Positions 9,053 through 23,551 are shown, counted from the first letter of the stretch. The stretch: 32,000 bases of DNA from Halorhodospira halophila SL1 (GCF_000015585.1 NC_008789.1:990001-1022000), one strand, 5' to 3'. The notes: generated by a model from the sequence alone, not told the origin. Program-made: numbers and translations.

Positions 9053-10315
9053 TTACTTCGCCTCGCCGTTCTTGGCCTTCGGGCCCGGGTGGCTGAGCCC
9101 GGCCGCCTGATCCAGGCGTGGATGCCCCTGGCGGAAGGTCTCGCGCAGTCGGCCACTGCCGTCGTCCTGGGCATCGAGGGCCTGCAGGGTCCCGGTGACC
9201 AGGTGGATGGCCGCCAGGACGTCCCCGGTGTGGCCGCTCTCGGAGATGGTGTGCATGTTGCGCACCGGGATCCCCAGCGAGGCGGCGGTGCAATCCACGT
9301 TGCCGAGCACCCCGGCCATGCCGTCGGTGCCGGTGTCGCGGCCGCTGACGTCGCGCTGCACCGGGATGTCCTGCTCGGTCGCCACCCGCTGGATCACCGC
9401 GTTGAGCTGATCGCTGGCCACCGCGCCAACGGTGTAGGTGACGCCGGCACCCATGGTCAGGGGCTGGAAGCGCTTGTCCGAGACCCCCGGGGCGGCGACG
9501 TAGTCCTGGTCCACGTCCACGGCAATCAGCGCATCGGGGCGCAGCTCACTGGCCAGCACGCGACTGCCGAAGCGGCCGATCTCCTCGTAGCTGGCGATGG
9601 CGAAGAGCATGCGCACGTTGCGGGCGCCGCCGGCCTCGGCGATCTGGCGCGCCGCCTCGGCGGTGGTGAAGCACCCCAGGCCGTTGTCCAGATAGGCCCC
9701 GTAGAAGGTGTCCGGGCTGAAGCCCCGGCGGATGGGCCGGTTGAGGAGGATCGGGTCGCCGGGGCGGACGCCGAGGTCCTCGACCTGCTTCTTCTTGTTC
9801 TCGCCGTGGATGTGAAGCTCCAGGTAGAGCTGCTCCTTCCTGACCCCCTTACGCCCGGTGCGCGTCTCCTCGTCGGCGAAGTGGATGGCGCCCAGAGCCT
9901 CGACGGTGCCGCCCTCAATGCGCCGGTAGGCGCCGGGGTTCTCCGGGGCCTCGCTGAACAGGGTGACCTCGTGGCCGATCAGGGTGCCGGGCAGGAAGGA
10001 GTCGCTGTCGATCCAGACCTTGCCGTCGTCGCCGATGCTGCGCACCTGCATGCGGATCTTGTCGGCGTGGCCGACCACCATCACCTTGAATAGATCGTCC
10101 CGGCCCGGATGGGTGTCGAGGACGATGCCGGCGTGCCCCTGGAACTGGTGGACGCGCCACTCGGCGGGCGCGAAGGATTCGAAGTACGGCTTGAGCACCC
10201 CGTAGGTCATGGCCCCTTCGAGGCCGACCGGGCTGGGCGCGGCGAGGACCTCGCGCATGCGCTCGAACTGCTCCTCGGGCATGGACTGGGTCCACGGCTT
10301 GCTGGATTGGGTCAT
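9053..10315 (-). CDS. M42-family metallopeptidase (glutamyl aminopeptidase / FrvX-like)
   Basis: VVGHADKIRMQVRSIGDDGKVWI, YLDNGLGCF, FAIASYEEIGRFGS and LIAVDVDQD match the M42 metal-ligand and active-site layout (H-x-D, D, EE, D). Confidence 0.78.
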   Translation of the reverse strand: MTQSSKPWTQSMPEEQFERMREVLAAPSPVGLEGAMTYGVLKPYFESFAPAEWRVHQFQGHAGIVLDTHPGRDDLFKVMVVGHADKIRMQVRSIGDDGKVWIDSDSFLPGTLIGHEVTLFSEAPENPGAYRRIEGGTVEALGAIHFADEETRTGRKGVRKEQLYLELHIHGENKKKQVEDLGVRPGDPILLNRPIRRGFSPDTFYGAYLDNGLGCFTTAEAARQIAEAGGARNVRMLFAIASYEEIGRFGSRVLASELRPDALIAVDVDQDYVAAPGVSDKRFQPLTMGAGVTYTVGAVASDQLNAVIQRVATEQDIPVQRDVSGRDTGTDGMAGVLGNVDCTAASLGIPVRNMHTISESGHTGDVLAAIHLVTGTLQALDAQDDGSGRLRETFRQGHPRLDQAAGLSHPGPKAKNGEAK

Positions 10316-10390
10316 GGGCCTCCTCTCGCGTGTGGCTATCGGATTGCGGGATACTGGTCGCTACGCTCACACCATAGCGCAGCTCAAGCC

Positions 10391-11665
10391 GTGGCATCGA
10401 ACCGCAGATACGCCAGCGCCGGACTCGACGTGGGCACCTCCGGGTGCAAGGCGGCCGTCGTTGACCCCCAGGGGGGCGTCCTCGCCCGCGCCCGGGTCGA
10501 GTGGCCGGAGGCGAGCATGCCCGCCGACCCGGAGACGTGGTGGGTGGTCGCCCGGTCCGCCCTGGCCCGCGCCGTCGCTGAGGCGCGGCGCCCGGTGGGC
10601 CGGGTGGCCGTGGATGGGACCTCGGGCACGGTGCTGTGGGCGGCCGCCGACGGCACCCCGCTCACCCGGGCCATGCGCTACGATGAGCCCGCCGCCGGCA
10701 CCTGGGCGGCGGTCATCGCCGGCCAGGCCCCGGCTGAGAGCGGCGCCCACGGCAACAGCTCCGGCCTGGCGCGCGCCCTGCACCTGGCCGCCCTGTACGG
10801 GCTGCGCGGCCCCTGTCAGCTGCTCAGCCAGGCCGACTGGATCGCCGGACGGCTGTGCGGCCGATTCGACTGCACCGACGAGAACAACGCCCTGAAGCTG
10901 GGCTACGACCCGGTGGCGCGGCGCTGGCCGGACTGGCTGCAGGAGGTACCGCTACCGACGGAGTGCCTGCCCGCCGCCTTCGCCCCGGGGACCGAGATTG
11001 GCACGGTGCGCGCCGAGGTGGCCCGGGCCACCCACCTGCGCGACGACTGCCGGATGATCGCGGGCACCACCGACTCCATCGCCGGCTTCCTGGCCACCGG
11101 GGCCCGCAGCGAGGGGGACGCCGTCACCTCCCTAGGCACCACCCTCGCCCTGAAACAGGTCTGCCCGCAGGCGGTTTTTGCCCCGGGATACGGGGTTTAC
11201 AGCCACCGCCTGGGCGAGCGCTTCCTGGCCGGCGGCGCCTCGAACTGCGGCGCCGGCATCCTGGCGCGCTACTTCACCGAGGTGGAGCTCGAGCGCCTGA
11301 GCGCCGCCCTTGACCCGGATCGCGACACCGGGCTCGACTACTACCCCCTACCCACCGCCGGGGAACGCTTCCCCTACGCCGACCCGCAGCTGCAGCCGCG
11401 ACTGGAACCCCGCCCGGAGGATCCGGGCCGTTTCCTCCAGGGACTGATGGAGGGTGTCGCCGCCGTCGAGGCCGAGGGCTACCGCCGCCTGCAGGAGCTG
11501 GGCGCGCCCGCGCTGGAGCGCGTCCTCACGGTGGGCGGCGGCGCTGCCAACCCGGCCTGGACCCGCATCCGCAGCCGCTACCTGGGCGTCCCCGTGGTGC
11601 CGGCCGAGGAGTCGGAAGCCGCTGTGGGCACGGCACGGCTGGCCGGCGGACTGATGACCGCGTAG
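10391..11665 (+). CDS. FGGY-family carbohydrate kinase
   Basis: YASAGLDVGTSGCKAAVVD is the FGGY N-terminal ATPase motif, and the C-terminus has VLTVGGGAANPAWTRIRS. The track ORF starts at 10109, inside the divergent peptidase gene. GTG 10391 is the first plausible start after 10315 (giving MASNRRYASAGLDVGTSG), so the start is uncertain. Confidence 0.8.
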   Translation: MASNRRYASAGLDVGTSGCKAAVVDPQGGVLARARVEWPEASMPADPETWWVVARSALARAVAEARRPVGRVAVDGTSGTVLWAAADGTPLTRAMRYDEPAAGTWAAVIAGQAPAESGAHGNSSGLARALHLAALYGLRGPCQLLSQADWIAGRLCGRFDCTDENNALKLGYDPVARRWPDWLQEVPLPTECLPAAFAPGTEIGTVRAEVARATHLRDDCRMIAGTTDSIAGFLATGARSEGDAVTSLGTTLALKQVCPQAVFAPGYGVYSHRLGERFLAGGASNCGAGILARYFTEVELERLSAALDPDRDTGLDYYPLPTAGERFPYADPQLQPRLEPRPEDPGRFLQGLMEGVAAVEAEGYRRLQELGAPALERVLTVGGGAANPAWTRIRSRYLGVPVVPAEESEAAVGTARLAGGLMTA

Positions 11666-11679
11666 CCCTGGCACGCCCA

Positions 11680-12489
11680 TTAGCGCCAAAAGGTCAGGCC
11701 GTTGAGGGTGCCGTCGGTTAGGGCGCTTGGGTAGCGGTGCAGCACCTCCGGGCCGTACTCGCGGGCACGGCGCTCATCGTCCCGCTGGCGGTAGGGGTCG
11801 AACACCCGCCCCGGCGGCAGCGGCTTGCGCGGATCCATGTACCAGCAGTAGAAATCCCACTCCTCCTGCATCCGCCCCAGGGGTACGCTGAGGTGGTTGT
11901 CCGGGCGAAGGGCGCTGATACCGCCGAAGTGTCCCCCGTAGGACCCTGGGCTGTACTCGGGGATCACCTCCAGCTCCCGCCAGGGCACCTCGATGTAGTC
12001 CCCTTCGCCCACCGGCGGGAGGGAGACGGTCTGCTTGCGACGGTCGAAGGTCACCGTGTGCGGTGGCCGCTTGCCGCGGCGCATGCGGATATAGCTGCGC
12101 AGCTGGCGCAGGGAGATCCATAAAGAAAAAGCCGTTAGCGCAGCCAGCCCTGCCGAGAACATGGCAGCGAAAACCATGACCGAGAAATACCAGGCTGGAA
12201 AATCCTCCACAGCGAACACTACTGCCATTACTCCGAAGACAATGGATCCCGCCAAGAAAGCCCCGCTAAAAAAGAGAGGAATTAATGCCTGCGCTAGCTC
12301 GTCGCATCTACAGGGACGCTGGATGTACTCATCATCAGCCAAGATCCCTAACTCCCTCTCCGTCCCGTCATCATCGAGCACCGGGAAAGGAGGGAGCCTT
12401 TCTGAATCCTTTACCAACCAACGCTTACCTGCGGAGCGACGGGCCACCCAGCGGCTGATGAACGGCGGGCGGTAGAATGTCCACGCCAT
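11680..12489 (-). CDS. Two-TM membrane protein, putative immunity protein for the upstream effector
   Basis: The 269-aa ORF has GGGAGG 7 nt upstream of its ATG and starts 15 nt after the effector stop. Two hydrophobic helices are visible (LIPLFFSGAFLAGSIVFGVMAVVFAV and WYFSVMVFAAMFSAGLAALTAFSLWISL), followed by a soluble tail of about 140 aa. I recognise no family. The immunity role is inferred from position only. Confidence 0.6.
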   Translation of the reverse strand: MAWTFYRPPFISRWVARRSAGKRWLVKDSERLPPFPVLDDDGTERELGILADDEYIQRPCRCDELAQALIPLFFSGAFLAGSIVFGVMAVVFAVEDFPAWYFSVMVFAAMFSAGLAALTAFSLWISLRQLRSYIRMRRGKRPPHTVTFDRRKQTVSLPPVGEGDYIEVPWRELEVIPEYSPGSYGGHFGGISALRPDNHLSVPLGRMQEEWDFYCWYMDPRKPLPPGRVFDPYRQRDDERRAREYGPEVLHRYPSALTDGTLNGLTFWR

Positions 12490-12504
12490 CTCCGGACCTC
12501 CCTG

Positions 12505-15500
12505 TCACCCCTGCGACCGGCTCCCGGCCGCCTCTTCCCTGAGCACCTCGTCCACGGTCAGCGCACGGGGCGCCACCGCCGCCTTGGCCCGACCCTGCCA
12601 GGCGGGCACGGGCACCCGGGCCACCCAGTAGCGGGGCGTGCCGTCGGCCTCGGGCTCCGGCAGGGCGTCGTCACCGGCGCCGGCTACCGCCCGCTGCCGG
12701 ATGAGGAAGCAGAGCTCGCCGCGCCACCCCGGGGCCGTCGGCAGGGCGTCCCAGGCGAGGGTTACCGTGAGGGCGTCGGAGCCCTCCCCCGGCGCCGCCT
12801 TGATGAACGCTGGAGGCAGCGGGGTCACCTCCTGGCAGGCACCGTCCTCCGGGCAGAGCAGCACCCGACACTCCAGGCGGTCCCGCCGCCACGCCACCCC
12901 CGCCAGGGTCAGGCGGACCTGGCGCAGGGCGCCCCGGCCGCCCAGCTGCTGGCTGTACTCGGCGGCCACCCGCAGCGGCGGGCGGTGCAGGACGCGCTGC
13001 CACCAGGCGGCCACCGCCGGCCAGTCGTCCCAGCTCCCGGTCTCGGCGGGCCGTTGCACCGGTGGCCCCACCTCCACCGCCCGGGCCACCCAGGCCCACC
13101 CCGAATCCCGGTCCGAGCCACCCAGCCGCTCCCGGGCTGTTGGGGTAAAGGGGCCATTGCGACAGAAATCGGCAAACGAAGTATCTGAAACATAGCCCGC
13201 TATAGCCGACGCACCGACGGCTACCAAGAGAAACGACAGACCAACACCTCCGCTACCCGCAAGCCAGAAGCCACCCGCACCCAGGTAAGCTAACCCCGCC
13301 ACGAACCACGTCCGGCTGGCTACCTCATCACCACGTGAGGATCGACTGTAGCCGCGGCCCGCGGCATAGATCGCGCTTGCGAAAGCGGCTGCACCACCAA
13401 GCACTTGCGCCCGTAATCCCAACCGCTCGATACGCCCATACCTCGGATCCCCCACCGGAATCCGTGGCTTCAGATAGGCGAGCCGGGTCTGGGCGAGCAG
13501 CTCCGCCAGGGTCAGGGAGGAGGCGACGGCGCTGGCGATGTGGTACCAGGCCTCGGTACGGGTCTGGCGTACCGCCTGGTTGAGGTTGATGAGCTCCAAG
13601 GCGCCGAAGACGCTGCGCAGTGCGTGGCCGCCGGAGCTGGTGGAGAGGCGCTCGGCCAGGTCGGCCAGGCGACCCTCCGGCAGGCGGGTGGAACGCAGTT
13701 CGCGGACACGGATCTCGTCCTCGATGCGCAGCTCGGCGGTGAGGGGGCTGCCGAGGACCTGCACCGGGCCGCGGCCGGCATCGGCCACGGCGGCGTGGTA
13801 GTCGTCGCTGCCGGCGGCGAGGATGCGGAAGCGCCGCTCGTAGCCCTGGTGCTCGATCCGCAGGGTGCGCGCCTCGCCTCCCGTAGGCGCTCCGGCGCGG
13901 CGCTGGATTTCGGCCAGCGGGACGCCGTCGAAGTCCGGCGCCGGGTAGCTGACCGTGGTCACCTCCAACCCCGCCAGCAGGGCCAGACCGGGCAGCTCCT
14001 GGAAGCGGCAGGTGATGCGCATGACGTGCTCGAGGGCGTCGCCCTGATAGCTCACCGACTCGGCGAAGGTCGACAGCAACACGTACAGGACCTCCGCCGC
14101 GTCCTCGGCGGTCACCGCACGGCGCTGCTCGGCCAGGTCGCAGCAACGCTCCACTGCCTGGAGACGCCGCGGCGCCGCCGCCAGCTGCAGCTCCAGCTCC
14201 CGGCGCGGCCGGGGCAAGCCGCCGCCCCGCGCCCCGGCGCCCAGGGTCAGCGGCTCGGCCGCCAACAACCGGGCGGCGACCCGGGCCAGCCCGGAGGGAT
14301 CACCCTCGGCCTCCAGGACGGTGCGCAGCAGCGCGCGGGCCTGATCCAGTTCTGCGGCCTCCGCCTCGCCCTCGGCCGCGGGGATGTCGCCGATGTAACC
14401 GTCGGCGGTGTCCGCCGGCACGGCCAGCTCCCGGAAGTGCGCGCCCAGGGCGGCGAGTCCCTCGAAGACCCGGCGCGGGGTGTTGCCGGCGTAGTCGGCC
14501 AAGGCATCGGCGTAACGTTGGCTACTGAGCAGCGCCAAGCGCTTGCGGCGCACCCGGCGAATCTCGGCGCGGATCTCGCTGCGTTCGGCGACACCGAGCA
14601 GGCGCTCGAGCAGCTCGCGGTCGGGCGGTTGCTCGCCGGGCCCCAGGCGCTCCTCGACGAAGGCCAGACGAAAGGTGCCCGCCGCCACGGCGTGGAGGGA
14701 TTCGGCCGCCGCCAGCCATTGCTCGTCGGGCTGCTGCGGATCGCCCTCCCCTTCGCCGACGGTGCTTCGCTCCGGATTGGTGCCGGTCTGCAGCCCGGCG
14801 ACCAGCGTCTCGAGTCGATCCGCCAGCGCCGCCTGCTCATGGGCCAACCCGCGCGCCTCGCCCAGGGGGTCGTCGAGGTAGAGCAATGCCAGACCGTCCT
14901 CGGCGTAGGGGGCGAGATCCTCGCGGACCGGCTCGGATTCGCCTTCTTCCGCCACCGCGTCGCGGAAGGCGCCACTCCCCCCGAGGCGGCCGGCCGCCCC
15001 GGGCCCGGTGTCGGGGTCTTCGGTTAGCTCAATGGGGAAGAAGCGCGCCTCGGGGGGTGGCTCGGCGGCGCCGTCCGGTTCACCGTGTACCCCGGCCCGG
15101 GGATCGTCGGGGGCCAGCCCGCCGGCGGCGGCGATGCGCGCCCAGGGGAGCTGGACGGCAGAAAACAGCCCCTCCAGGACCACCGGCTCGCCGCCGATGC
15201 GCAGCGGCAGGAGCAGCATCGGCCGCCCATCACCGGTGGGCCGGCGCAGGTCGCCGTGCTCGTAGGCCAGGTTGACCTCGTGGAGGCGGCCACGCGGGTG
15301 GACATAGCACTCACGCCACAGGTAGCGCCGATCCCCCTCCCGACGGAACAGGTAGAGCCACCCCCCGAAGCCGAAGCCGGCGTCGCGGTGGCGGAGCTCG
15401 GCGTCCCGGGCGAAGCGCACCAGCGTCGGGATCAGGACCGTCGGCGGGGAGACCTCGGGCTCCTCCCCCGGCAGCCACGCCGGCTGTTCGGCCCCGCGGG

Positions 15501-16188
15501 TGAGCGGGACCTTGCAGAGGTGGTGACGCCGGTCGGCGTCGATCAGGCTCAGTTGCAGCGCTTCGGTCCCTTCGGGGAGCTCTTCGATGGCGGCTCCCCA
15601 CCGCTCGCCGTCGTGGTGGCTCCAGCGTAGGGCCCGGCTGCGGTGCCAGCCGCCCGACGCCGGCTCGACCACCACCTCGCCGGGGAGCGGGGCCTGCGGC
15701 CCGCCACCGATGTCGATCCGCGTCCGCGGTCGTGGCTCGGCGTCCGGCGGCGGATCGCCGCCGGTCAGGGTGGTGGGCGGGAGCTGCTCCTGGAGCAGCG
15801 GGGCCGGCGGGGTGTTCTCGTGGTTGGCCACCATGGCGTCGAGGGCTCGAGCCACCGGCACGCCCTCGACGAAGACGTCCGGCGAGCCGCTGCCGGGCAG
15901 GAAGGTCGCCGGACCGGTGATGGTGCCGGAAACGGTCCCGCCCTGATCACCCCCCTCGTCGCCCCGGGAGCGGGCGAACTGCGAGGCCTCGGTGCAGACC
16001 GGGTGCCCCTCGACGAAGACAGTTCGGGCGGTCTCCGCGGCGTCCCGCGACTCGGCCACATTGAGGTACGGGATCGACACCGTCGAGCTGCCGACGGTGG
16101 TGCGGCAGACGTCGGTGGTCAGCAACTCGCCCCCGGAGCCAGCGTGCACCAGGGTGCGGCCATTGGCGGTTACCGTGGGCCGGGTCAC
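12505..16188 (-). CDS. Large T6SS-type effector with an N-terminal PAAR-like DUF4150 domain, a VasX/MIX-like region and C-terminal TM helices
   Basis: Residues 1 to about 128 read TANGRTLVHAGSGGELLTTDVCRT..VSIPYLNVAESRDAAETARTVFVEGHPV..SRGDEGGDQGGTVSGTITGPATFLPGSGSPDVFVEGVPVARALDAMVANHENTPP, the DUF4150 pattern. LIPTLVRFA and GFGGWLYLF (aa 251-281) resemble MIX/VasX_N motifs. Glycine-rich TM helices lie at about aa 880-995. I chose GTG 16188 as the start, overlapping the upstream stop as GTGA. The track's 1578-aa ORF carries 351 Arg/Pro-rich out-of-frame-looking extra codons. Confidence 0.85.
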   Translation of the reverse strand: MTRPTVTANGRTLVHAGSGGELLTTDVCRTTVGSSTVSIPYLNVAESRDAAETARTVFVEGHPVCTEASQFARSRGDEGGDQGGTVSGTITGPATFLPGSGSPDVFVEGVPVARALDAMVANHENTPPAPLLQEQLPPTTLTGGDPPPDAEPRPRTRIDIGGGPQAPLPGEVVVEPASGGWHRSRALRWSHHDGERWGAAIEELPEGTEALQLSLIDADRRHHLCKVPLTRGAEQPAWLPGEEPEVSPPTVLIPTLVRFARDAELRHRDAGFGFGGWLYLFRREGDRRYLWRECYVHPRGRLHEVNLAYEHGDLRRPTGDGRPMLLLPLRIGGEPVVLEGLFSAVQLPWARIAAAGGLAPDDPRAGVHGEPDGAAEPPPEARFFPIELTEDPDTGPGAAGRLGGSGAFRDAVAEEGESEPVREDLAPYAEDGLALLYLDDPLGEARGLAHEQAALADRLETLVAGLQTGTNPERSTVGEGEGDPQQPDEQWLAAAESLHAVAAGTFRLAFVEERLGPGEQPPDRELLERLLGVAERSEIRAEIRRVRRKRLALLSSQRYADALADYAGNTPRRVFEGLAALGAHFRELAVPADTADGYIGDIPAAEGEAEAAELDQARALLRTVLEAEGDPSGLARVAARLLAAEPLTLGAGARGGGLPRPRRELELQLAAAPRRLQAVERCCDLAEQRRAVTAEDAAEVLYVLLSTFAESVSYQGDALEHVMRITCRFQELPGLALLAGLEVTTVSYPAPDFDGVPLAEIQRRAGAPTGGEARTLRIEHQGYERRFRILAAGSDDYHAAVADAGRGPVQVLGSPLTAELRIEDEIRVRELRSTRLPEGRLADLAERLSTSSGGHALRSVFGALELINLNQAVRQTRTEAWYHIASAVASSLTLAELLAQTRLAYLKPRIPVGDPRYGRIERLGLRAQVLGGAAAFASAIYAAGRGYSRSSRGDEVASRTWFVAGLAYLGAGGFWLAGSGGVGLSFLLVAVGASAIAGYVSDTSFADFCRNGPFTPTARERLGGSDRDSGWAWVARAVEVGPPVQRPAETGSWDDWPAVAAWWQRVLHRPPLRVAAEYSQQLGGRGALRQVRLTLAGVAWRRDRLECRVLLCPEDGACQEVTPLPPAFIKAAPGEGSDALTVTLAWDALPTAPGWRGELCFLIRQRAVAGAGDDALPEPEADGTPRYWVARVPVPAWQGRAKAAVAPRALTVDEVLREEAAGSRSQG

Positions 16189-17213
16189 GCGGCACCCCCA
16201 GAGGAGGCGCCACCCCCCACGGTGCTTTCGGCCGGCTTGCGCAGGTCGAACACGCCGGCGACGCCGTCCCCCGCGGCGGTCAGCAGGATGCGCTGCGGGC
16301 CCTCGGCGGCGTGCAGCAGCCCGGCGGCTGCCACCAGCTGCAGGGGCAGTGTGGCCGCGCCGGAAAACCCTAGGCCGCGCCACAGCAGGTGGCGCGCGGC
16401 GGCCGGGGTGCGCCGCAGGGCGGGCACCAGCCGGCGGACGTTGGCCCAGGCCTGGCGCTCTGCCGGGGTGGCGCCGAACCCGTGGGCCTCGACCAGGGCG
16501 CCGGCAGCGTCTGCTTCCGGCACGGTCTCCTGGAGCAGTCGCTGCCAGGTGGCGGGCTGCTCCGACGGACCGCCCAGGGCCGCGCGCTGGAGCAGCAGGC
16601 CGGCCGACCCGGCGGGGGCGGTGCGCAGCAGCAGGAAGGCGGCGCCATCCGCGGCGGGGGGTCCGTCGATGGCGGGGAGGCACCGGCGGCGCAAGCGCGG
16701 ATCGGCGCAGGCCGCCGGGGCCGCGCAGGGATCGACGCCGCCGATCAGGAGGCTCGCCAGCCGACCCTCGGCAACCGCCTGCGCGGCCCGGTGGAGCAAC
16801 TGCACCGCCGATACGGGCCCCTGCGGCCGCCACCAGGCCACCCGCCGAAGCGGCGATACCCGATCGGTCAGCTGCCCGATCAGCCAGTGGTGCTGCGCCC
16901 AGCGCACCCCGGGTTGATGGGGCCCCGGCGGGATCACCACCGCCGCCGCGGGGGGCGCGGCGGTGAGGCGCTCGCTCAGCCGCGGGGCGCTGTCCGCGAC
17001 CAGGCGGTCCATGCGCGCGGCGTAGCCCTGGCCGTCCAGCGCCGGATCGCTGAGCACTGGGATCGGCTGCTGCGGCGCCTCGCCGAGCAGCTCGGGCTGT
17101 GCCACGGGCGGGGCGTCGGTCACCGCACGGGCCAGGGCCTCGGGATCGGTGCCGGCGGCGTGCCAGGCGGCCAGCGGCTCGAACAGCACGGGGGCGGTGG
17201 TGGCGTGGTTCAT
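16185..17213 (-). CDS. Degenerate beta-ketoacyl-synthase/thiolase-fold protein, likely a non-enzymatic accessory or chaperone
   Basis: The 342-aa protein starts at ATG 17213, in an ATGA overlap with the DUF2169 gene stop. KAS-like landmarks are present: AARMDRL, RPQGPVSAVQLLHRAAQAVAEGRLASLLIGGVD, ADGAAFLLL, VEAHGFGAT and GLGFSGAATLPLQL. There is no Cys at the nucleophile position, and the second catalytic His is replaced (GFSGAA versus GHxxGAAG). Confidence 0.7.
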   Translation of the reverse strand: MNHATTAPVLFEPLAAWHAAGTDPEALARAVTDAPPVAQPELLGEAPQQPIPVLSDPALDGQGYAARMDRLVADSAPRLSERLTAAPPAAAVVIPPGPHQPGVRWAQHHWLIGQLTDRVSPLRRVAWWRPQGPVSAVQLLHRAAQAVAEGRLASLLIGGVDPCAAPAACADPRLRRRCLPAIDGPPAADGAAFLLLRTAPAGSAGLLLQRAALGGPSEQPATWQRLLQETVPEADAAGALVEAHGFGATPAERQAWANVRRLVPALRRTPAAARHLLWRGLGFSGAATLPLQLVAAAGLLHAAEGPQRILLTAAGDGVAGVFDLRKPAESTVGGGASSGGAA

Positions 17214-18226
17214 CGCTCTCCGCCCCCGATCCCGTCGGCATCGACCCGCAATGCCCAGCCCGGCCCCGGCGCCGGCTCCGGCACCCACCCCCGCCAGACC
17301 AGCCACACCCGGCCGGCGTCGGCGTCGATCCCCAGGGTGTCCGCCTGCACCGTCACCCGCTGTCCGCGCCCCGGGCGGTGCAGGGTGACCTGCGGACCGC
17401 CGCCGGGCAGTTGCCAGATGACCGTGTGGTCCGGGTCCACCCCAGGGAGGACCCCCTGCAGGCGGATGCGCTCGTCGCCGCACAACGGGGTGTCGAGGCA
17501 CTGGTCTGCCGGGGCGGCATTCCAGGCGTCGGGCCGGGGCAGGCGGCGGTAGCGCAGCTGGCCCTGGCGATAGGCATGGGCATCCAGGCGCCCGAAACGC
17601 CGGGCCCGGGGCGCCCAGGCCGCCGCCAGAGGCCCGAAGCCGGCGGGCGCCCCGCGCCGGGTGGCGCGGTGGTCGTCCCACAGCAGCCGGGGCGACGGCC
17701 CGGCGGCGGCACCCCACCACGCCGCCCGATGCCCCCGGCCCACCGGGTTGCGAGCGTAACGCCGGTGCCGCGGCCCACCGAGTGGTCCGCCGTAGGCCAG
17801 TTCGTAGGTGAGCGGCACCGGCCCCTCCAGCGCACCGGGCGGATCGGAGGCCCGCGGCGGCGGCTCGGCCACCGCCCACACCCGCTTGGGGCCGAACCGG
17901 GGCCGGCCGCCGGCGTCCTCGACCCCCAGACAGGCCGCTGCCTGCGACCGCCCGGGGCCGACCTGTACCGCGCCGTGGAGCAGGCACTCGGCCCCGTGCT
18001 TGAAGGGAACGCAGTCGGGTGCGGTGAGCGGGGCGTGAGCGGCGGGATCACCGGCGTAGCGTTCGGCGGTCTCCAGCGCCGGCGTGTCGTCATCGAGGCG
18101 CAGCCGGGCGGCATCGCCGCCGCGGAAGCCGGCCTTGACCGCCACCGCGATCCCCGGGCACCCAGCGGCATCGAGGTCCACCCAGGCCCGCGCATCCAGC
18201 GGCCCCTGGACCGAGACAGGCAACAT
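17210..18226 (-). CDS. DUF2169-family T6SS adaptor protein
   Basis: The 338-aa protein carries the DUF2169 landmarks in order: AVAVKAGF, DCVPFKHGAECLLHGAV, GPKRVWAV, VPLTYELAYGGP, NPVGRG, PAGFGPLAAAWAPRARRFG, LPRPDAWNAAPADQ, LCGDERIRLQGVLPG and VQADTLGIDADAGRVWLVWRG. Confidence 0.85.
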   Translation of the reverse strand: MLPVSVQGPLDARAWVDLDAAGCPGIAVAVKAGFRGGDAARLRLDDDTPALETAERYAGDPAAHAPLTAPDCVPFKHGAECLLHGAVQVGPGRSQAAACLGVEDAGGRPRFGPKRVWAVAEPPPRASDPPGALEGPVPLTYELAYGGPLGGPRHRRYARNPVGRGHRAAWWGAAAGPSPRLLWDDHRATRRGAPAGFGPLAAAWAPRARRFGRLDAHAYRQGQLRYRRLPRPDAWNAAPADQCLDTPLCGDERIRLQGVLPGVDPDHTVIWQLPGGGPQVTLHRPGRGQRVTVQADTLGIDADAGRVWLVWRGWVPEPAPGPGWALRVDADGIGGGER

Positions 18227-18237
18227 TCCAGGGCACC

Positions 18238-18699
18238 TCAGTTGATGGCGACGCGGGCCCCGCGGATGCGGTGCTCGCCGCGGGCCCTGGCCTCGACCAC
18301 CTCGCCGTCGATGCGGATGGCGCCGTCGGCACCGAGTTCCAACTCGGCGCCGGCCACCTCGAGGCGGATGCTGCCGTGCTCGGCCCGCAGCAGGTAGCTG
18401 CCGTCGGGGCGGCGCTCCAGGCCCGCACGGGGCGGTTCATCGGCATCGGCGAGGGCGTGGATCAGGTAGAGCCCCTGATCGGCTGGGTCGAGCAGTGCCA
18501 CCACCCGATCGCCGGGCTTGAGTGCGGAGAGCTCGCGGGCGTGGCCGGCCACGGGCCACTCGGTGATCCCCTCGGGGGTGTCGACGGCCACACGGGTGGC
18601 CCGGCCCTGACGGCTGGTGGTGAGAACCTCCGCCCAGCAGACGGCGGTGGCGGCGTACAGGCCCACGGGTACGGGGCCGAGAACCGGATCATCTTCCAT
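18238..18699 (-). CDS. Small gp5/gpV-like spike protein (OB-fold plus short beta-helix) lacking the VgrG gp27 hub domain
   Basis: The 153-aa protein starts at ATG 18699, with GGGAG about 10 nt upstream. The N-terminal half (VGLYAATAVCWAEVLTTSRQGRATRVAVDTPEGITEWPVAG...LKPGDRVVALLDPADQGLYLIHAL) fits the baseplate-V / VgrG gp5 OB-fold pattern (..W.pv....P.vGD.V.v.f..GD...p.i.g.l). The C-terminus (GSIRLEVAGAELELGADGAIRIDGEVVEARARGEHRIRGARVAIN) looks like gp5_C beta-helix repeats. The track's 365-aa ORF extension runs antisense through bioA and is not VgrG-like. Confidence 0.68.
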   Translation of the reverse strand: MEDDPVLGPVPVGLYAATAVCWAEVLTTSRQGRATRVAVDTPEGITEWPVAGHARELSALKPGDRVVALLDPADQGLYLIHALADADEPPRAGLERRPDGSYLLRAEHGSIRLEVAGAELELGADGAIRIDGEVVEARARGEHRIRGARVAIN

Positions 18700-18879
18700 G
18701 ACGATCGTGCTCCCTGTGGTAGACCATCCTTGGTGGTTGTTATTAAGGAACACCGTTCGCCAGCGTCCCGTCAACCCGACAGGGCGCGCGGATTGTCGCC
18801 GGCACGCTGGACCCATTCGCCGGCACGAGGCAGACTCCCGCCCGGCGAGCCGCGACCCACCACTGCCCGGAGCCCGGCC

Positions 18880-20238
18880 ATGAACGACCGCAACAGCGAA
18901 CTGATCCGCCGCGACCTCAACGTCCTGTTCCATCCGACCACGCAGATGAAGGACCACCACGACGGGCTGCCCCTGATCCCGGTGGAGGCCGGCCGCGGTG
19001 CGTGGCTCCAGGATCGCAACGGCAAGTGGTACCTGGACGCCATCAGCTCCTGGTGGGTGAACCTGTTCGGCCACTGCAACCCGCGGATCAACGAAGCGAT
19101 CCGCAACCAGCTCGACCGGCTCGAGCACGTGATCCTGGCCGGTTGCTCCCACGAGCCGGCGGTGGAGTTGGCCGAGCGCCTGGTGGACCTGACCCCGCCG
19201 GGGCTGGAGCGGGTCTTCTTCACCGACAACGGCTCGTCGAGCATCGAGGTGGCCCTGAAGATGAGCCACCACTACTGGCGCAACACCGGCCACCCGGAGA
19301 AGACGCGCTACATCAACCTCTCCAACAGCTACCACGGCGACACCATCGGTGCGCTGAGCGTCGGCGATGTAGGGGTGTTCAAGGACGCCTACAAACCGCT
19401 ACTCATGGAGCCGATCACCGTGCCGTCGCCGGATTGTTTCCACCGTGAACCCGGCACGGACTGGGCGGAGCACTCCGAGCAGATGTTCGCCCACATGGAG
19501 GCGGCGCTGCAGGAGCACGGCCACGAGACGGCGGCGGTCATCCTCGAGCCCCTGGTCCAGGGGGCCGGCGGCATGCGCATGTACCACCCGGTCTACCTGC
19601 AGCGCCTGCGCGAGGCCTGCGACCGCCACGGGGTGCACCTGATCGCCGATGAGATCGCCACCGGATTCGGCCGCACCGGCACGCTATTCGCCTGCGAGCA
19701 GGCCGGCATCGCGCCGGATTTCATGTGTGTCTCCAAGGGCATCACCGGCGGCTACCTACCCCTGGCCGCGGTCCTGCTCAGCGAGCCCATCTACCAGGCC
19801 TTCTTCGACGACTTCACCCGGCTGACCGGCTTCCTGCACTCGCACAGCTACACCGGCAACCCGCTGGCCTGCGCGGCCGCCCTGGCGACGCTGGGGATCT
19901 TCGAAAGCGACCAGGTGCTGGCGCACAACCGCGACACCGCCCGGCGCATGGCCGAGGCCGCCGCACCCCTGGCCGACCACCCGCGGATCGGCGAAGTCCG
20001 CCAGCAGGGCATGATCCTGGCCATGGAGATGGTGCGCGATCCGGCCCGCAAGACGCCCTTCCCCTGGCAGGAACGGCGCGGTCTGATCGCCTACCGCCAC
20101 GCCCTGGAGCGCGGCGTGCTGATGCGCCCGATCGGCAATGTGCTCTACTGGATGCCGCCCTACGTGATCGAGCCGGACGAGATCGCCCTGCTCGGCGAGG
20201 TGGCCGCCGAGGCCGTCGACCGGGCCACCCGGGACTAA
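18880..20238 (+). CDS. bioA: Adenosylmethionine-8-amino-7-oxononanoate aminotransferase
   Basis: The protein is colinear with E. coli BioA: HPTTQM, DAISSWWVNLFGH, FFTDNGSSSIEVALKM, YHGDTIGALSVGD, LIADEIATGFGRTG and CVSKGITGGYLPLAA (the PLP lysine). The start is ATG 18880; the track ORF begins upstream at 18271. Confidence 0.95.
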   Translation: MNDRNSELIRRDLNVLFHPTTQMKDHHDGLPLIPVEAGRGAWLQDRNGKWYLDAISSWWVNLFGHCNPRINEAIRNQLDRLEHVILAGCSHEPAVELAERLVDLTPPGLERVFFTDNGSSSIEVALKMSHHYWRNTGHPEKTRYINLSNSYHGDTIGALSVGDVGVFKDAYKPLLMEPITVPSPDCFHREPGTDWAEHSEQMFAHMEAALQEHGHETAAVILEPLVQGAGGMRMYHPVYLQRLREACDRHGVHLIADEIATGFGRTGTLFACEQAGIAPDFMCVSKGITGGYLPLAAVLLSEPIYQAFFDDFTRLTGFLHSHSYTGNPLACAAALATLGIFESDQVLAHNRDTARRMAEAAAPLADHPRIGEVRQQGMILAMEMVRDPARKTPFPWQERRGLIAYRHALERGVLMRPIGNVLYWMPPYVIEPDEIALLGEVAAEAVDRATRD

Positions 20239-20280: not shown

Positions 20281-21003
20281 ATGCCCCGCCTCTACATCGC
20301 CCAGCCCCTGAGCGCCGCAGCGGTGATCGAACTCACCGCCGACGCCGCCGCCCACGCCCGGGCGCTGCGCCTGCGCCCCGGCGATGCGGTGACCCTATTC
20401 AACGGCGAGGGCGGCGAGCACCCGAGCGAGGTCGTGGCGGTGGAGCGGCGCCGGGTAACGGTACGCGTGGGCGCCCACGACCCCACTGAGCGCGAGCTGC
20501 CGGCGGCCGTTCAACTACTGCAGGCGGTAGGCAAGGGCGAACGCATGGACACTGCGGTGGAGAAGGCGACCGAGCTGGGGGTCAGCGAGATCGTGCCGGT
20601 GCTCACCGAGCGCACCGTGGTGCGGCTGAATGATCCGCAGCGCGCCGCCAAGCGCCGCCGGCACTGGGAGGCGGTGGCGCGGGCCGCCTGCGAGCAGTGC
20701 GGGCGCAACACGCCGCCGCGGGTGGCCGAGCCGGTGCCGTTGGCGCAGGCCTGGGGGCACAGCCGGGATTACCCGCTGCGCCTGACCCTGGACCCGCTGG
20801 CCGACCCCCGCCTCAGCGAACTCACCGGGGCGCAGGCCACCTCGCTGCTCATCGGCCCCGAGGGCGGGCTCAGCCCGACGGAGCTGGAGGCGGCCGGCGA
20901 ACACGGTTTCCTCCGCGGGCGGGTGGGCCCCCGGGTCCTGCGCACGGAGACCGCCGCCGTGGTCGCCCTCGCCGCCGTCGGCCTCGCCCTGGGCGAACTC
21001 TAG
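20281..21003 (+). CDS. rsmE: 16S rRNA (uracil1498-N3)-methyltransferase
   Basis: The N-terminus MPRLYIAQPL...HARALRLRPGDAVTLFNGEGGEH and the C-terminal SPOUT motif LLIGPEGGLSPTELE...RVLRTETAAV are both present. Confidence 0.9.
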   Translation: MPRLYIAQPLSAAAVIELTADAAAHARALRLRPGDAVTLFNGEGGEHPSEVVAVERRRVTVRVGAHDPTERELPAAVQLLQAVGKGERMDTAVEKATELGVSEIVPVLTERTVVRLNDPQRAAKRRRHWEAVARAACEQCGRNTPPRVAEPVPLAQAWGHSRDYPLRLTLDPLADPRLSELTGAQATSLLIGPEGGLSPTELEAAGEHGFLRGRVGPRVLRTETAAVVALAAVGLALGEL

Positions 21004-23504
21004 CCCGGCTCGCCGCCCTCCAGTGCAGCGCACGCCTGGGCCAGGGCGTCGGCAAGCTGGCCCTCGTCGTAGGGCTTGAGCAGCACCCGCGCCGCGCCCA
21101 GCCCCGCGGCCGCGAGCCGCTCCTGATCGACGGCCCGGGTGCTCACCGCGACCACCGCCCCGGCGGCGATCCCGGCCTCGGCCACCAGGCGCTGGAGCAC
21201 GCCGAGCCCCTCCTCGTGCTGGAGCATCTCCATCTCCAGGTCGATGAGCACCGCCCGCGGCGCGCGCTCGGCCACGGCGCGCCGCGCCTCGTCGAGGCCG
21301 GCGGCGCCCTCCGGGTCGAAGCCCTGGCGCGCCAGCCGATGACCGGTGATCCGGCGCATGGTGCGCGAGTCGTCGAGGACCAGGATGCGAGGCCGCTCGG
21401 GGGCCTCGCCGGGGGGCTGCTCCGCGGCCTTCGCCCCGCGCATGGGCAGCCGCAGGGTGAAGCGGGCGCCGGCCCCCGGGGCGCTCTGCATCTCCAGCGT
21501 GCCACCGAGTTCGTGGACCACGCCGGCGACCTCGTCCATGCCCATGCCGGCCCCCGGGTCGCCCTCCGGCCCCAGCGTGGAGACCCCCGGCAGGCAGATC
21601 AGGCTCAGCGCCTCATCGTCGCTGAGGGCCGCGGTGGGCTCGTTGGGGTCGTAGTCGGAGACCTGGCGCTGCAGCGCCTCGGTGTCGAGTCCGGCGCCGT
21701 CGTCACTGACCACCAGCAGCACCTCGTCCTGGCCGTAGCGCAGGCTGAGCCCAACTCGGCCGACCTCCGGCTTACCGGCGGCACTGCGCGCCTCGGGGGG
21801 TTCAATACCGTGGCGCACGGCGTTGCGCAGCAGGTGCTCCAGCGCCGGCCGCAGGGCCTCCAGATAGGCCTCGGGCAGCGCGCGGGACGCCCCCTCCACG
21901 ACCAGCTCGACACGCCGGCCATACTCGCCGGCGGTGGCGTGGACCTGTCGATCGAGGGCGTCGATGTCCGGCTCCAGGGTCGCCAGCGCCGGCTCGGGGT
22001 CACGAGCCGGTTCCGCGACCGGAGCCGACTCGGTGGCGGGATCCGGCGGGTCGGCGTCCGCGTCGGCGGCCTCGTCCTCCGTTGCGGCCAATTCGGCGGC
22101 CAGGGCGTCGCCGAGCACCTCGGCGCTGGATCCGGTCTGCAGCTCCCAGCCATCCTCCGCAGGGGACGGCTCCGGGTCCTCGTCGGCCCACAGCTCGCCG
22201 TAATCGAAGGCCGCCGCTTCAGCGTCCGGCTCGGCGCCCGGCTCCGCGGTGTGACCCAGGACCTCGCGGCGCAGCACGCCGACCCGGTCGGCCAGTTGCT
22301 CCAGTTCGTGGCGCAGGCGCTGAGCGGTCCCGGCGGTAGCGCCATCCGCCAGCGCCGTGGCCACCTCGCCCTCGAGTTCGTGGCAGTGGGCGAAGAACTC
22401 GGTGAGGCCAGCGAAGCGCGCCCCGCCCTTGAGGGTGTGCAGGATGCGCTGGATGGCCAGCCCCGCCTCTGGGTCGCCGGCGCGCCAGCGCTGCAGGGCG
22501 GCGCCGATCTGCGACAGCGCCGGCCCCACCTCGGCGTAGAACAGCGCCTGCAGATCGACGTCGCTGCGCACCAGCGCCCGCGAGGCCGCCCCGGCCTCAT
22601 CCTCGGCCGGGGGCGGCATGGCCAGGGTGGCCCCGGGCAAGCGCCGGGCGGCCGCCTGGACCTGGCCCACCCGGCCGGTGCCCGGCGCCTCGGTGAGCGG
22701 CTGGAGCAGCGCCTCGGCCATGCTCGATTCGGGGAGCCCGCCCACTGCACCGTGCTCGAGCAGCCGGCGCAGCTCGCGGTCGTAGGCGGCAATCGCCCGC
22801 TTCTGCCCCGGATCCAGGGTCTCGCCCTGCTCCAGCAGATCGAGCACCGCCAGGGCGCTCCAGCAGGCGCTGCCGGCGGCGCTGTCGCCCAGGGCCGCCT
22901 CCAGGGGCTCGAGGACGCCGCGCAGCTGGCCGAGGGCCCGGCGTTCGTCGCCGCGGATCAGCTCCAGGAGCCCGCGCTGGTAGGCCAGACGGCTGGTGCG
23001 GGCGGTCTCGGCGACCTCGCCGTGGGCCGCGGGCGCGCTCGGGTCAACGCACTGACGCAGCAGCGCCAGGCTGTCGTAGCGCGGCTGACCGCGGGCGCGG
23101 CGCAGCCCGTCGATGAGGCTGGCCAGCTCCGCCACCGGGTCCTCGGCCCGTACGGCGATGCGCTCGATGGCCCGGGGCAGCCGCAGCACGGCATCCATCA
23201 GGGCCGCGCGCAGCGGCTGGACCTCCACCCCGCCCTCGTCCGGCGACTGGTAGGCCCGTTCCAGGTCGGCCGCGGCGCCGCGCAGCTCGGCACTGAGGTG
23301 CTCGAGTTCGCGTACGCCGACGAACAGGAAACCGCCGTGCAGGCGCTGGAGCTCGCCGTGGAGCGCGGTCAGGGCGCCGGGCTCGTCACCCGCCTCCTGC
23401 AGACGCACCGCCGCGGCGCTGACGCTGTCGCGCAGTTCGGGCAGCAGCCGGGTCAGCTCGCGCCGGGGGTCGACGCCGAAGGCCTTGGTTCGTCGCTCAT
23501 CCAT
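21000..23504 (-). CDS. CheA/ChpA-like hybrid histidine kinase (Hpt, CheA-type HATPase and receiver domains; no CheW-like domain)
   Basis: The Hpt motif ILHTLKGGARFAGL, the CheA P4 signatures ALEHLLRNAVRHGIEPPEARSAAGKPEVGRV and VVSDDGAGLD, and a C-terminal REC domain (RILVLDDSRTMRR...VLIDLEMEM...LLKP) are present. A second, degenerate Hpt-like segment lies near the N-terminus (LHGELQRLHGGFLFVG). The start is uncertain: ATG 23504 is chosen here, and the track has TTG 23525. Confidence 0.8.
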   Translation of the reverse strand: MDERRTKAFGVDPRRELTRLLPELRDSVSAAAVRLQEAGDEPGALTALHGELQRLHGGFLFVGVRELEHLSAELRGAAADLERAYQSPDEGGVEVQPLRAALMDAVLRLPRAIERIAVRAEDPVAELASLIDGLRRARGQPRYDSLALLRQCVDPSAPAAHGEVAETARTSRLAYQRGLLELIRGDERRALGQLRGVLEPLEAALGDSAAGSACWSALAVLDLLEQGETLDPGQKRAIAAYDRELRRLLEHGAVGGLPESSMAEALLQPLTEAPGTGRVGQVQAAARRLPGATLAMPPPAEDEAGAASRALVRSDVDLQALFYAEVGPALSQIGAALQRWRAGDPEAGLAIQRILHTLKGGARFAGLTEFFAHCHELEGEVATALADGATAGTAQRLRHELEQLADRVGVLRREVLGHTAEPGAEPDAEAAAFDYGELWADEDPEPSPAEDGWELQTGSSAEVLGDALAAELAATEDEAADADADPPDPATESAPVAEPARDPEPALATLEPDIDALDRQVHATAGEYGRRVELVVEGASRALPEAYLEALRPALEHLLRNAVRHGIEPPEARSAAGKPEVGRVGLSLRYGQDEVLLVVSDDGAGLDTEALQRQVSDYDPNEPTAALSDDEALSLICLPGVSTLGPEGDPGAGMGMDEVAGVVHELGGTLEMQSAPGAGARFTLRLPMRGAKAAEQPPGEAPERPRILVLDDSRTMRRITGHRLARQGFDPEGAAGLDEARRAVAERAPRAVLIDLEMEMLQHEEGLGVLQRLVAEAGIAAGAVVAVSTRAVDQERLAAAGLGAARVLLKPYDEGQLADALAQACAALEGGEPG

Positions 23505-23551
23505 GGGTTGGTTACAATGCCACAAACCACTCAGCTGCCGTGAATCTGCCC

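Follow-up and report, generated by a model that had tools for sequence, protein, structure and literature searches.

What is the function of a compact run of five genes that resembles the accessory set of a type VI secretion system (T6SS), but that lies between bioA and an FGGY kinase gene in Halorhodospira halophila SL1, with no such machine nearby? The genes fall within a stretch of 32,000 nucleotides (GCF_000015585.1, NC_008789.1:990001-1022000; hereafter the window). No tss, hcp or vgrG gene was found anywhere in this 32-kb window, and no tail, sheath or baseplate genes lie near the cassette. We conclude that the cassette is a divergent, vgrG-unlinked member of a recently described system, and not a new weapon or delivery system. 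It is very likely a Class II Tvp (synteny type A) operon for loading the tip of a T6SS spike, joined to its own cargo, and it comprises a tvpC-like gene, tvpA, a tvpD-like gene, the gene of a PIPY-headed effector, and a probable immunity gene. The T6SS served is most likely the machine encoded elsewhere in the H. halophila genome. The genes, called g1 to g5, and their relevant parts are listed below, with positions counted from the first nucleotide of the window.

g1, 18238-18699, minus strand, 153 aa: TvpC-like protein with a predicted OB-fold and short beta-prism that would mimic the VgrG tip, without a gp27 domain.
g2, 17210-18226, minus strand, 338 aa: DUF2169 protein (TvpA), the putative chaperone of the PIPY/DUF4150 domain.
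g3, 16185-17213, minus strand, 342 aa: divergent thiolase/ketosynthase-like protein in the TvpD (PRK06147) position.
g4, 12505-16188, minus strand, 1227 aa, GTG start: putative specialized effector; a PIPY/DUF4150 cone at the N terminus leads through a long linker to a predicted membrane-inserting region, with a tail at the C terminus.
PIPY (DUF4150, PAAR-like) domain of g4, 15808-16122, minus strand, aa 23-127: Pfam match, with SIPY at aa 38-41.
Hydrophobic glycine-zipper region of g4, 13147-13635, minus strand, aa 852-1014: recognized by hydropathy and weak NF041559 similarity.
g5, 11680-12489, minus strand, 269 aa: two-transmembrane (TM) inner-membrane protein, probable immunity protein.
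Divergent spacer between g1 and bioA, 18700-18879, 180 bp: presumed site of the operon promoter.

The five open reading frames (ORFs) are all intact and co-directional, and their junctions, checked base by base, are those of a tightly packed operon. The g1 stop codon (TGA) is followed by 11 nt and an ATG, g2 and g3 share an ATGA overlap, g3 and g4 share a GTGA overlap, and g4 and g5 are separated by TGA, 15 nt and ATG, with a GGGAGG Shine-Dalgarno sequence inside the gap. These junctions indicate translational coupling. The start sites of g1 to g4 match the gene calls on orthologous contigs, with products of 153, 337-339, 338-344 and 1223-1227 aa, respectively.

The logic of such gene sets was described recently. 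Synteny type A consists of vgrG and genes for a DUF6484 protein, a DUF2169 protein, a thiolase-like protein and a DUF4150 effector (Sachar et al. 2025, PMC11883445). DUF2169 proteins are required for delivery of PIPY-headed effectors, and both DUF2169 and PIPY have been reported only with VgrG-based T6SS spikes (PMC11883445). In Serratia, a gp27-less TvpC that combines an OB-fold with a beta-prism forms a pre-complex with DUF2169 and DUF4150 proteins, and VgrG then displaces TvpC (Monlezun et al. 2026, PMC13373197). The Class II Tvp set of Pseudomonas aeruginosa contains PA0096 (DUF6484, TvpC-like, with a very short prism), PA0097 (DUF2169, TvpA), PA0098 (PRK06147, TvpD) and Tse7; small OB-fold/short-beta-prism proteins of the PA0096 type are regular members of such sets, encoded in addition to vgrG, and pentapeptide-repeat proteins are a feature of Class III, not of the P. 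aeruginosa Class II set (PMC13373197).

The assignments of g2 and g4, already made in an earlier reading of the DNA from sequence alone (the sequence-only reading), are confirmed by profile search. g2 matches DUF2169 (PF09937, E=3.2e-56) over model positions 4-294 of 294 and is a single-domain protein without a pentapeptide extension. No DUF2169 structure was detected when g2 was compared with the PDB by phmmer, and a tblastn search against plasmids gave no match; the chaperone role assigned to it, towards the PIPY/DUF4150 domain, comes from PMC11883445 and PMC13373197. At its N terminus (aa 23-127), g4 matches the Tox-PAAR-like/DUF4150 family (PF13665, E=1.5e-32). Relative to the motif P(I/V)P(Y/F), the first proline is replaced by serine, giving SIPY. 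The domain aligns to the N-terminal PAAR-like domain of the T6SS Rhs protein 8qjc (E=1.2e-13), where SIPY stands opposite PVPY.

The identity of g1 emerges from its family. Alone, g1 has no sequence match in Pfam, NCBIfam, PHROG or the PDB. It gave no match to DUF6484 at E<=0.1 and none to the VgrG/gp5/gpV spike models Phage_GPD, Phage_base_V, Gp5_C or T6SS_Vgr, and a word-indexed homologue search returned Halorhodospira sequences only. A g1 profile run with HMMER against 1.84 billion representative proteins retrieved 92 relatives, nearly all of 137-170 aa. When g1 and 64 of these relatives were scanned one by one, DUF2345, which is the beta-helix of VgrG, was matched by 9 of the 65, DUF3540 by 8, and DUF6484 by 2 (best 5.9e-14). 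The g1-family profile aligns to residues 557-611 of P. aeruginosa VgrG1, at the tip that ends the beta-prism (E=4e-5), and matched other VgrGs as well. The AlphaFold2 models of g1 and g3 are monomers built from three-sequence alignments. That of g1 (overall predicted local distance difference test [pLDDT] score of 57, which is low) predicts a barrel of five strands (aa 20-82, pLDDT ~70-83) and, after it, short strands. As modeled, the protein has only this OB-like barrel and the short strands, with no gp27-like or other tube-docking domain. Foldseek places the model closest to the spike of R2 pyocin (4s37, E=5e-4), with phage baseplate spikes and VgrG next, all with low TM-scores.

The genomic company of the g1 family is equally informative. 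In metagenomic T6SS loci (L013 and L014), the family member P0012 directly follows a vgrG gene of 694 codons and precedes a DUF2169 gene, in the order tssE-tssF-tssG-clpV-vgrG(694 aa)-P0012-471 aa-DUF2169-KS-like, where KS denotes ketosynthase. A TvpC-like protein is expected to be short, to match DUF6484 and to be encoded before DUF2169; g1 fits in size and position, and DUF6484 is reached only by relatives in its family. The sequence-only reading had taken g1 for a mini-spike that replaces VgrG, a view that conflicts with the regular presence of TvpC-like proteins in addition to vgrG and with the place of the g1 family directly behind a full-length vgrG.

Two side observations concern this family and its neighborhood. 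P0015, a protein of 2341 aa, matches residues 67-105 of g1 in nine separate stretches, which suggests that copies of the same beta-strand unit make up a repeat protein. In addition, a gene of ~400-470 codons that matches no Pfam family sits between the TvpC-like gene and the DUF2169 gene in H. halochloris (L006 10500-11699) and in two unrelated metagenomic clusters (L013 8503-9918 and the contig of P0010). The window has no counterpart; g1 and g2 are separated there by 11 nt. An "armadillo-like repeat" partner has been mentioned for synteny type A, and the ~400-470-codon gene may encode it.

For g3, only profile comparison bridges the distance to known proteins. Alone, g3 has no Pfam, NCBIfam, PHROG or PDB sequence match, does not reach the PRK06147 or ketoacyl-synt models, and, like g1, returned Halorhodospira sequences only from the word-indexed search. 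Its orthologue in H. halochloris is 33% identical (E=2e-30). The top NCBIfam match of the H. halochloris and H. abdelmalekii orthologues is NF004798 (PRK06147), at E=5.6e-5 and 2.2e-5, well below the cut-off. A pairwise BLAST comparison of g3 with the ketoacyl-synt-positive protein that occupies the TvpD position in L013 was not significant, whereas hhalign of the g3-family profile against the same protein gave a probability of 95% (E=3.4e-8, 317 columns). With the low-confidence AlphaFold2 model of g3 (pLDDT 56), all 50 of the top 50 Foldseek matches were thiolase-fold enzymes, with low TM-scores. The evidence leans towards g3 being the thiolase-like TvpD. The spike-like and ketosynthase-like characters proposed earlier for g1 and g3 therefore hold at the level of profile and fold, not at that of direct database matches.

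Starting with the small OB/beta-prism protein and ending with the gene behind the effector, g1 to g5 have the same order and content as the vgrG1b cluster of P. aeruginosa PAO1, which runs PA0095 (VgrG1b), PA0096, PA0097, PA0098, PA0099 (Tse7) and PA0100 (Tsi7). Both sets have a single-domain DUF2169 protein and an effector with an N-terminal DUF4150/PIPY cone, and neither has a pentapeptide-repeat protein. In contrast to the PAO1 cluster, the H. halophila operon lies apart from the T6SS cluster, with no vgrG upstream, and its g1 and g3 proteins have diverged too far to match the DUF6484 and PRK06147 models. The cargo also differs: the Tse7 toxin is a nuclease, whereas the toxin part of g4 is a large membrane-type region and the putative immunity protein g5 has two TM segments. 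The relationship to the vgrG1b-Tse7 set without an adjacent vgrG, as an adaptor, effector and probable immunity operon of T6SS type, had been recognized in the sequence-only reading and stands, although the PA numbers given there were off by one (the DUF2169 protein is PA0097, not PA0096). The absence of a pentapeptide-repeat gene, also pointed out there, is real and carries no meaning, as that protein belongs to Class III.

Other described systems overlap only in part. As in the TvpC-TvpAB-TvpB-Paar1 set of Serratia marcescens Db10 (Class III), a gp27-less OB-fold/beta-prism trimer would stand in for VgrG while a DUF2169 protein chaperones a DUF4150 cone. The Serratia pre-complex is the only experimentally tested version. 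In Class III, TvpC is longer (DUF3540), Paar1 stands alone, and the partners are pentapeptide-repeat proteins (the TvpAB fusion and TvpB); the cassette has none of these. The Agrobacterium tumefaciens pair Tap2 (Atu3641)-Tde2 (Class I, synteny type B) likewise joins a DUF2169 chaperone to a DUF4150-headed effector; unlike the cassette, it has no TvpC-like or TvpD-like proteins and adjoins vgrG2.

If the cassette lacks a machine of its own, the genome must be asked for one. A survey table lists a T6SS locus in SL1 at Hhal_0154-0166 (CP000544A), with two COG3501 VgrGs, TssG, TssF, TssE, Hcp, TssC, TssB, a protein without a COG, TssM, TssL, TssK and TssJ (Boyer 2009 supplement). The two vgrG genes are adjacent to each other at the far end of this cluster (Boyer 2009 supplement). 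The protein without a COG is Hhal_0162, which may be TssA, judged by its position relative to L010. The VgrG and T6SS expected in the same genome as a Class II module are thus documented for SL1 by the literature only. A search for TssK proteins found those of H. halochloris, H. abdelmalekii and Aquisalimonas and none named H. halophila, and a scan of genome contigs with H. halochloris TssK yielded one unrelated metagenome-assembled genome (MAG; L009) and did not recover the SL1 T6SS locus. A contig of the H. halophila clade (L015, P0104; GC content of 0.73), from the same metagenome as the cassette-bearing contig L005, carries HAD-DUF6164-FKBP-tssJ-tssK-tssL-tssM. This gene order fits the flanking COGs of Boyer 2009, and no Tvp module lies upstream of tssJ.

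The arrangement in sister species ties the module to a T6SS directly. In H. halochloris (L006-L008), the module consists of a g1-like gene, a gene of 399 codons, and genes for a DUF2169 protein, a KS-like protein and an effector; the H. abdelmalekii contigs (L011 and L012) start at the DUF2169 gene and continue with the KS-like and effector genes. In each of the two species, tssJ-tssK-tssL(-tssM) begins immediately downstream of the module. Identity to the cassette is 52% for the g1-like protein, 38% for DUF2169, 33% for the KS-like protein and 39% for the effector. Unlike the cassette, these modules are linked to tssJ and have no g5 homologue after the effector, and that of H. halochloris has the extra 399-aa gene. 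The module is tssJKLM-linked in the sister species and bioA-linked in H. halophila; it therefore belongs to the main T6SS cluster in the former lineage and stands apart from it in the latter. A vgrG gene directly upstream of the module was found in neither lineage.

Two further proteins are encoded upstream of the H. halochloris module (L006 7137-9735): one of 680 aa with several N-terminal TM segments and one of 162-174 aa with a signal-peptide-like N terminus. Neither matches a known family or has a homologue in the window, and an immunity or accessory function within the H. halochloris cluster is conceivable for both. The larger (675/680 aa) was considered as a VgrG and ruled out, as it has no VgrG match and a multi-TM N terminus.

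Within the H. halophila clade, the cassette occupies the same site between bioA and the FGGY kinase gene in all five other contigs recovered from genomes or metagenomes (L001-L005), with g1 identities of 56% to 86%; here, too, no vgrG gene stands immediately upstream of the module, where Class II would place it. Both flanks are syntenic in these contigs, and the cassette therefore lies inside a conserved block, not at its edge. The third-codon-position GC content (GC3) of g1 to g4 is 0.87-0.91, in line with that of the flanking genes. Around the cassette there are no tRNA genes, flanking repeats or mobility genes that could mark an insertion, and terminator and promoter checks were also negative. 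Compared with L003, the ratio of nonsynonymous to synonymous substitution rates (dN/dS) is 0.22-0.35 across all five genes (0.24 for g4 and 0.27 for g5) and 0.09 for bioA, at dS of ~0.4-1.0. All five genes, chaperones included, are under purifying selection. In L002 (GCA_964562765.1), the DUF2169 gene at 10064-11010 matches g2 in two frames (10064-10753 and 10750-11010), with a called product of 279 aa, which reflects either a frameshift or an error in MAG assembly.

These results bear on two further proposals of the sequence-only reading. The cassette had been regarded as an accessory insertion; the shared site in five other contigs and the host-like GC3 speak against this, and comparison of the FGGY-kinase/bioA junction among relatives, which had been suggested as a check, found the cassette at that junction in each of the five contigs; no insertion scars were found. 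An undescribed delivery module had also been entertained, and is disfavored by the two VgrGs of the SL1 T6SS (Boyer 2009) and by the tssJKLM-linked module of the sister species. That linkage comes close to a finding named in advance as refuting the earlier view, namely, close relatives in which the arrangement is ancestral core genome beside a complete T6SS.

What, then, would the operon deliver? The putative effector g4 is homologous over its full length to the tssJ-adjacent effectors of H. halochloris (39%) and H. abdelmalekii. Its hydrophobic glycine-zipper region (~aa 855-1000) is followed by a soluble tail of ~225 aa, so the protein does not end in TM helices as had been stated. NF041559, the BTH_I2691 T6SS effector family, matches this part of g4 weakly (E=1e-5, 24.3 bits, model positions 646-834 of 858); the matching stretch coincides with the glycine-zipper segment and recurs over the same region in the H. 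halochloris orthologue (E=5.1e-5). No family or PDB match was found for aa 140-850 and 1015-1227. The BTH_I2691/Tke5 family comprises pore-forming, membrane-depolarizing T6SS toxins, as described in PMC13133200 and PMC12909789. In resemblance to the BTH_I2691, Tke5 and VasX effectors, g4 has a weakly similar C-terminal hydrophobic, glycine-rich region and a neighboring gene for a membrane protein; unlike Tke5, which the same papers describe as recruited via an N-terminal MIX domain and an adaptor, it has a fused PIPY cone. Judged by these sequence features, the glycine-zipper region of g4 probably depolarizes the target membrane.

The protein encoded next, g5, has two hydrophobic segments at aa 65-127, in agreement with its earlier description as a 2-TM membrane protein. 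It is conserved in L003, L004 and L005 at 56-65% identity, and its GC content (0.62) and GC3 (0.76) are lower than those of g1 to g4. A small membrane protein encoded directly downstream of an effector and translationally coupled to it is in the usual position of a T6SS immunity gene. We consider g5 the probable immunity protein, and this is the weakest link of the explanation.

By analogy with work on Serratia, P. aeruginosa and Vibrio, a sequence of events can be proposed. The coupled operon would yield a g1 trimer that copies, with its OB-fold and short beta-prism, the blunt end of VgrG. On this surrogate tip the PIPY cone of g4 would dock, and g2, aided by g3, would shield the hydrophobic face of the cone. 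A genuine VgrG trimer, with Hhal_0154 and Hhal_0155 as the most likely candidates, would then receive the pre-complex, while g1 and the chaperones remain in the cell. Firing of the T6SS would carry the VgrG-g4 spike into a neighboring cell, where the glycine-zipper region may enter the inner membrane and dissipate the membrane potential; the two-TM g5 would protect sister cells. Inferred in this scheme are the pre-complex and its hand-over, the VgrG used, the action of g4 as a toxin, and the part played by g5 in immunity.

Several points weigh against this explanation. The SL1 T6SS locus is known here from the Boyer 2009 table, not from sequence, and that table lists no ClpV COG for Hhal_0154-0166. 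A literature search found no experimental work on any Halorhodospira T6SS. g1 and g3 are placed in Class II by transitive and profile links, their direct models not being reached, and their structural models are of low confidence, with low Foldseek TM-scores. The 24.3-bit match of g4 to the BTH_I2691 family is far below the 150-bit cut-off, and the resemblance is confined to the membrane region. Finally, the case for immunity is weakened by the lack of a g5 homologue next to the orthologous effectors of L002, H. halochloris and H. abdelmalekii: in L002 (15891-15918) the FGGY gene comes directly after the effector gene, and in H. halochloris (L006 17838-17860) and H. abdelmalekii the effector gene overlaps tssJ.

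Three other explanations deserve consideration. If g1 were a true minimal spike that replaces VgrG, the cassette could be a self-contained or differently organized delivery module, one that supplies, for instance, a tailocin, an extracellular contractile injection system or a phage-tail-like particle, or that constitutes an undescribed route of T6SS-independent export. The window, with no vgrG, hcp or tss gene, would suit this idea, as would the best structural match of the g1 model, a gpV-type R2 pyocin spike that works without a gp27 domain. We nevertheless regard it as very improbable, given that the g1 family adjoins a full-length vgrG inside a T6SS cluster, that the homologous module adjoins tssJKLM in two sister species, that SL1 has a T6SS with two VgrGs of its own, and that DUF2169 and PIPY are reported only with VgrG-based spikes (PMC11883445); moreover, g1 as modeled has no gp27-like or other domain for docking on a tube, and genes for a tail, sheath or baseplate are missing from its surroundings. 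It is also unlikely, and strongly so, that the cassette is a stranded relic that has loaded no spike since its separation from the T6SS and that survives only as decaying DNA or as an addiction pair of toxin and immunity protein. Its unlinked position, the split DUF2169 gene and missing g5 of L002, and the lack of a listed ClpV are what decay would predict. Against decay stand the five intact, translationally coupled ORFs and a dN/dS of 0.22-0.35 for every gene, chaperones too, at appreciable dS; the arrangement is kept in four further contigs, and the frameshift in L002 may be an assembly error.

The remaining alternative accepts the loading operon and disputes its cargo: g4 would not form pores in bacterial membranes, nor would g5 give immunity against it; some other activity or target could instead reside in the ~700-aa middle or the ~225-aa tail of g4, and g5 could be unrelated or an accessory membrane factor. 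We judge this somewhat unlikely. The low BTH_I2691 score, the large part of g4 that matches nothing, and the absence of g5 beside orthologous effectors in three lineages, together with its different composition, are all in its favor. The weak BTH_I2691 match, however, arises independently in the H. halochloris orthologue and falls on the glycine-zipper segment, and g5 holds the position usual for immunity genes. On balance, we retain the interpretation of a Class II loading operon with a probably membrane-active cargo.

The surroundings of the operon are those of a housekeeping region, as had been reported earlier. Past g5, the flank carries purC, gap, metK, pfkB, NmrA, a DEAD helicase gene, an M42 peptidase gene and the FGGY kinase gene, which is convergent with g5 and leaves 14 nt between the stops. 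Past g1 lie bioA, with its ATG at 18880 on the opposite strand to g1, rsmE and a FimL-type hybrid kinase gene. Motif scans found neither a consensus sigma-70 site nor a sigma-54 motif in the g1-bioA spacer. The FimL/Hpt/HATPase/receiver hybrid histidine kinase (21000-23525, minus strand), three genes from the cassette, is conserved in all syntenic contigs. The window has a GC content of 72%, and two longer minus-strand ORFs, 12505-17241 (1578 aa) and 16185-17987 (600 aa), were rejected as high-GC shadow extensions rather than genes; the frames of g4 and g3 remain free of stop codons into the genes upstream of them. Software that takes the longest ORF by default would annotate both intervals wrongly.

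The logic of this class of module was worked out only in 2025-2026, and the present case adds to it modestly. The divergence of the TvpC-like and TvpD-like proteins beyond the DUF6484 and PRK06147 models implies that model-based surveys undercount Class II systems. The module is separable from vgrG and the T6SS cluster and yet under purifying selection, which fits a self-sufficient pre-complex step. A more speculative extension, which we consider improbable, is that encoding the TvpC pre-complex far from vgrG allows the effector to be built, stored and regulated apart from the T6SS and to be loaded in trans on either distant VgrG, or, more boldly, that g1 is itself exported as an alternative extension of the tip. 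If true, in-trans loading or an exported g1 would extend the two-step model of Tvp assembly past vgrG-linked clusters. For H. halophila, the cassette points to a PIPY-headed, probably membrane-depolarizing effector in an extreme halophile whose T6SS biology is unstudied.

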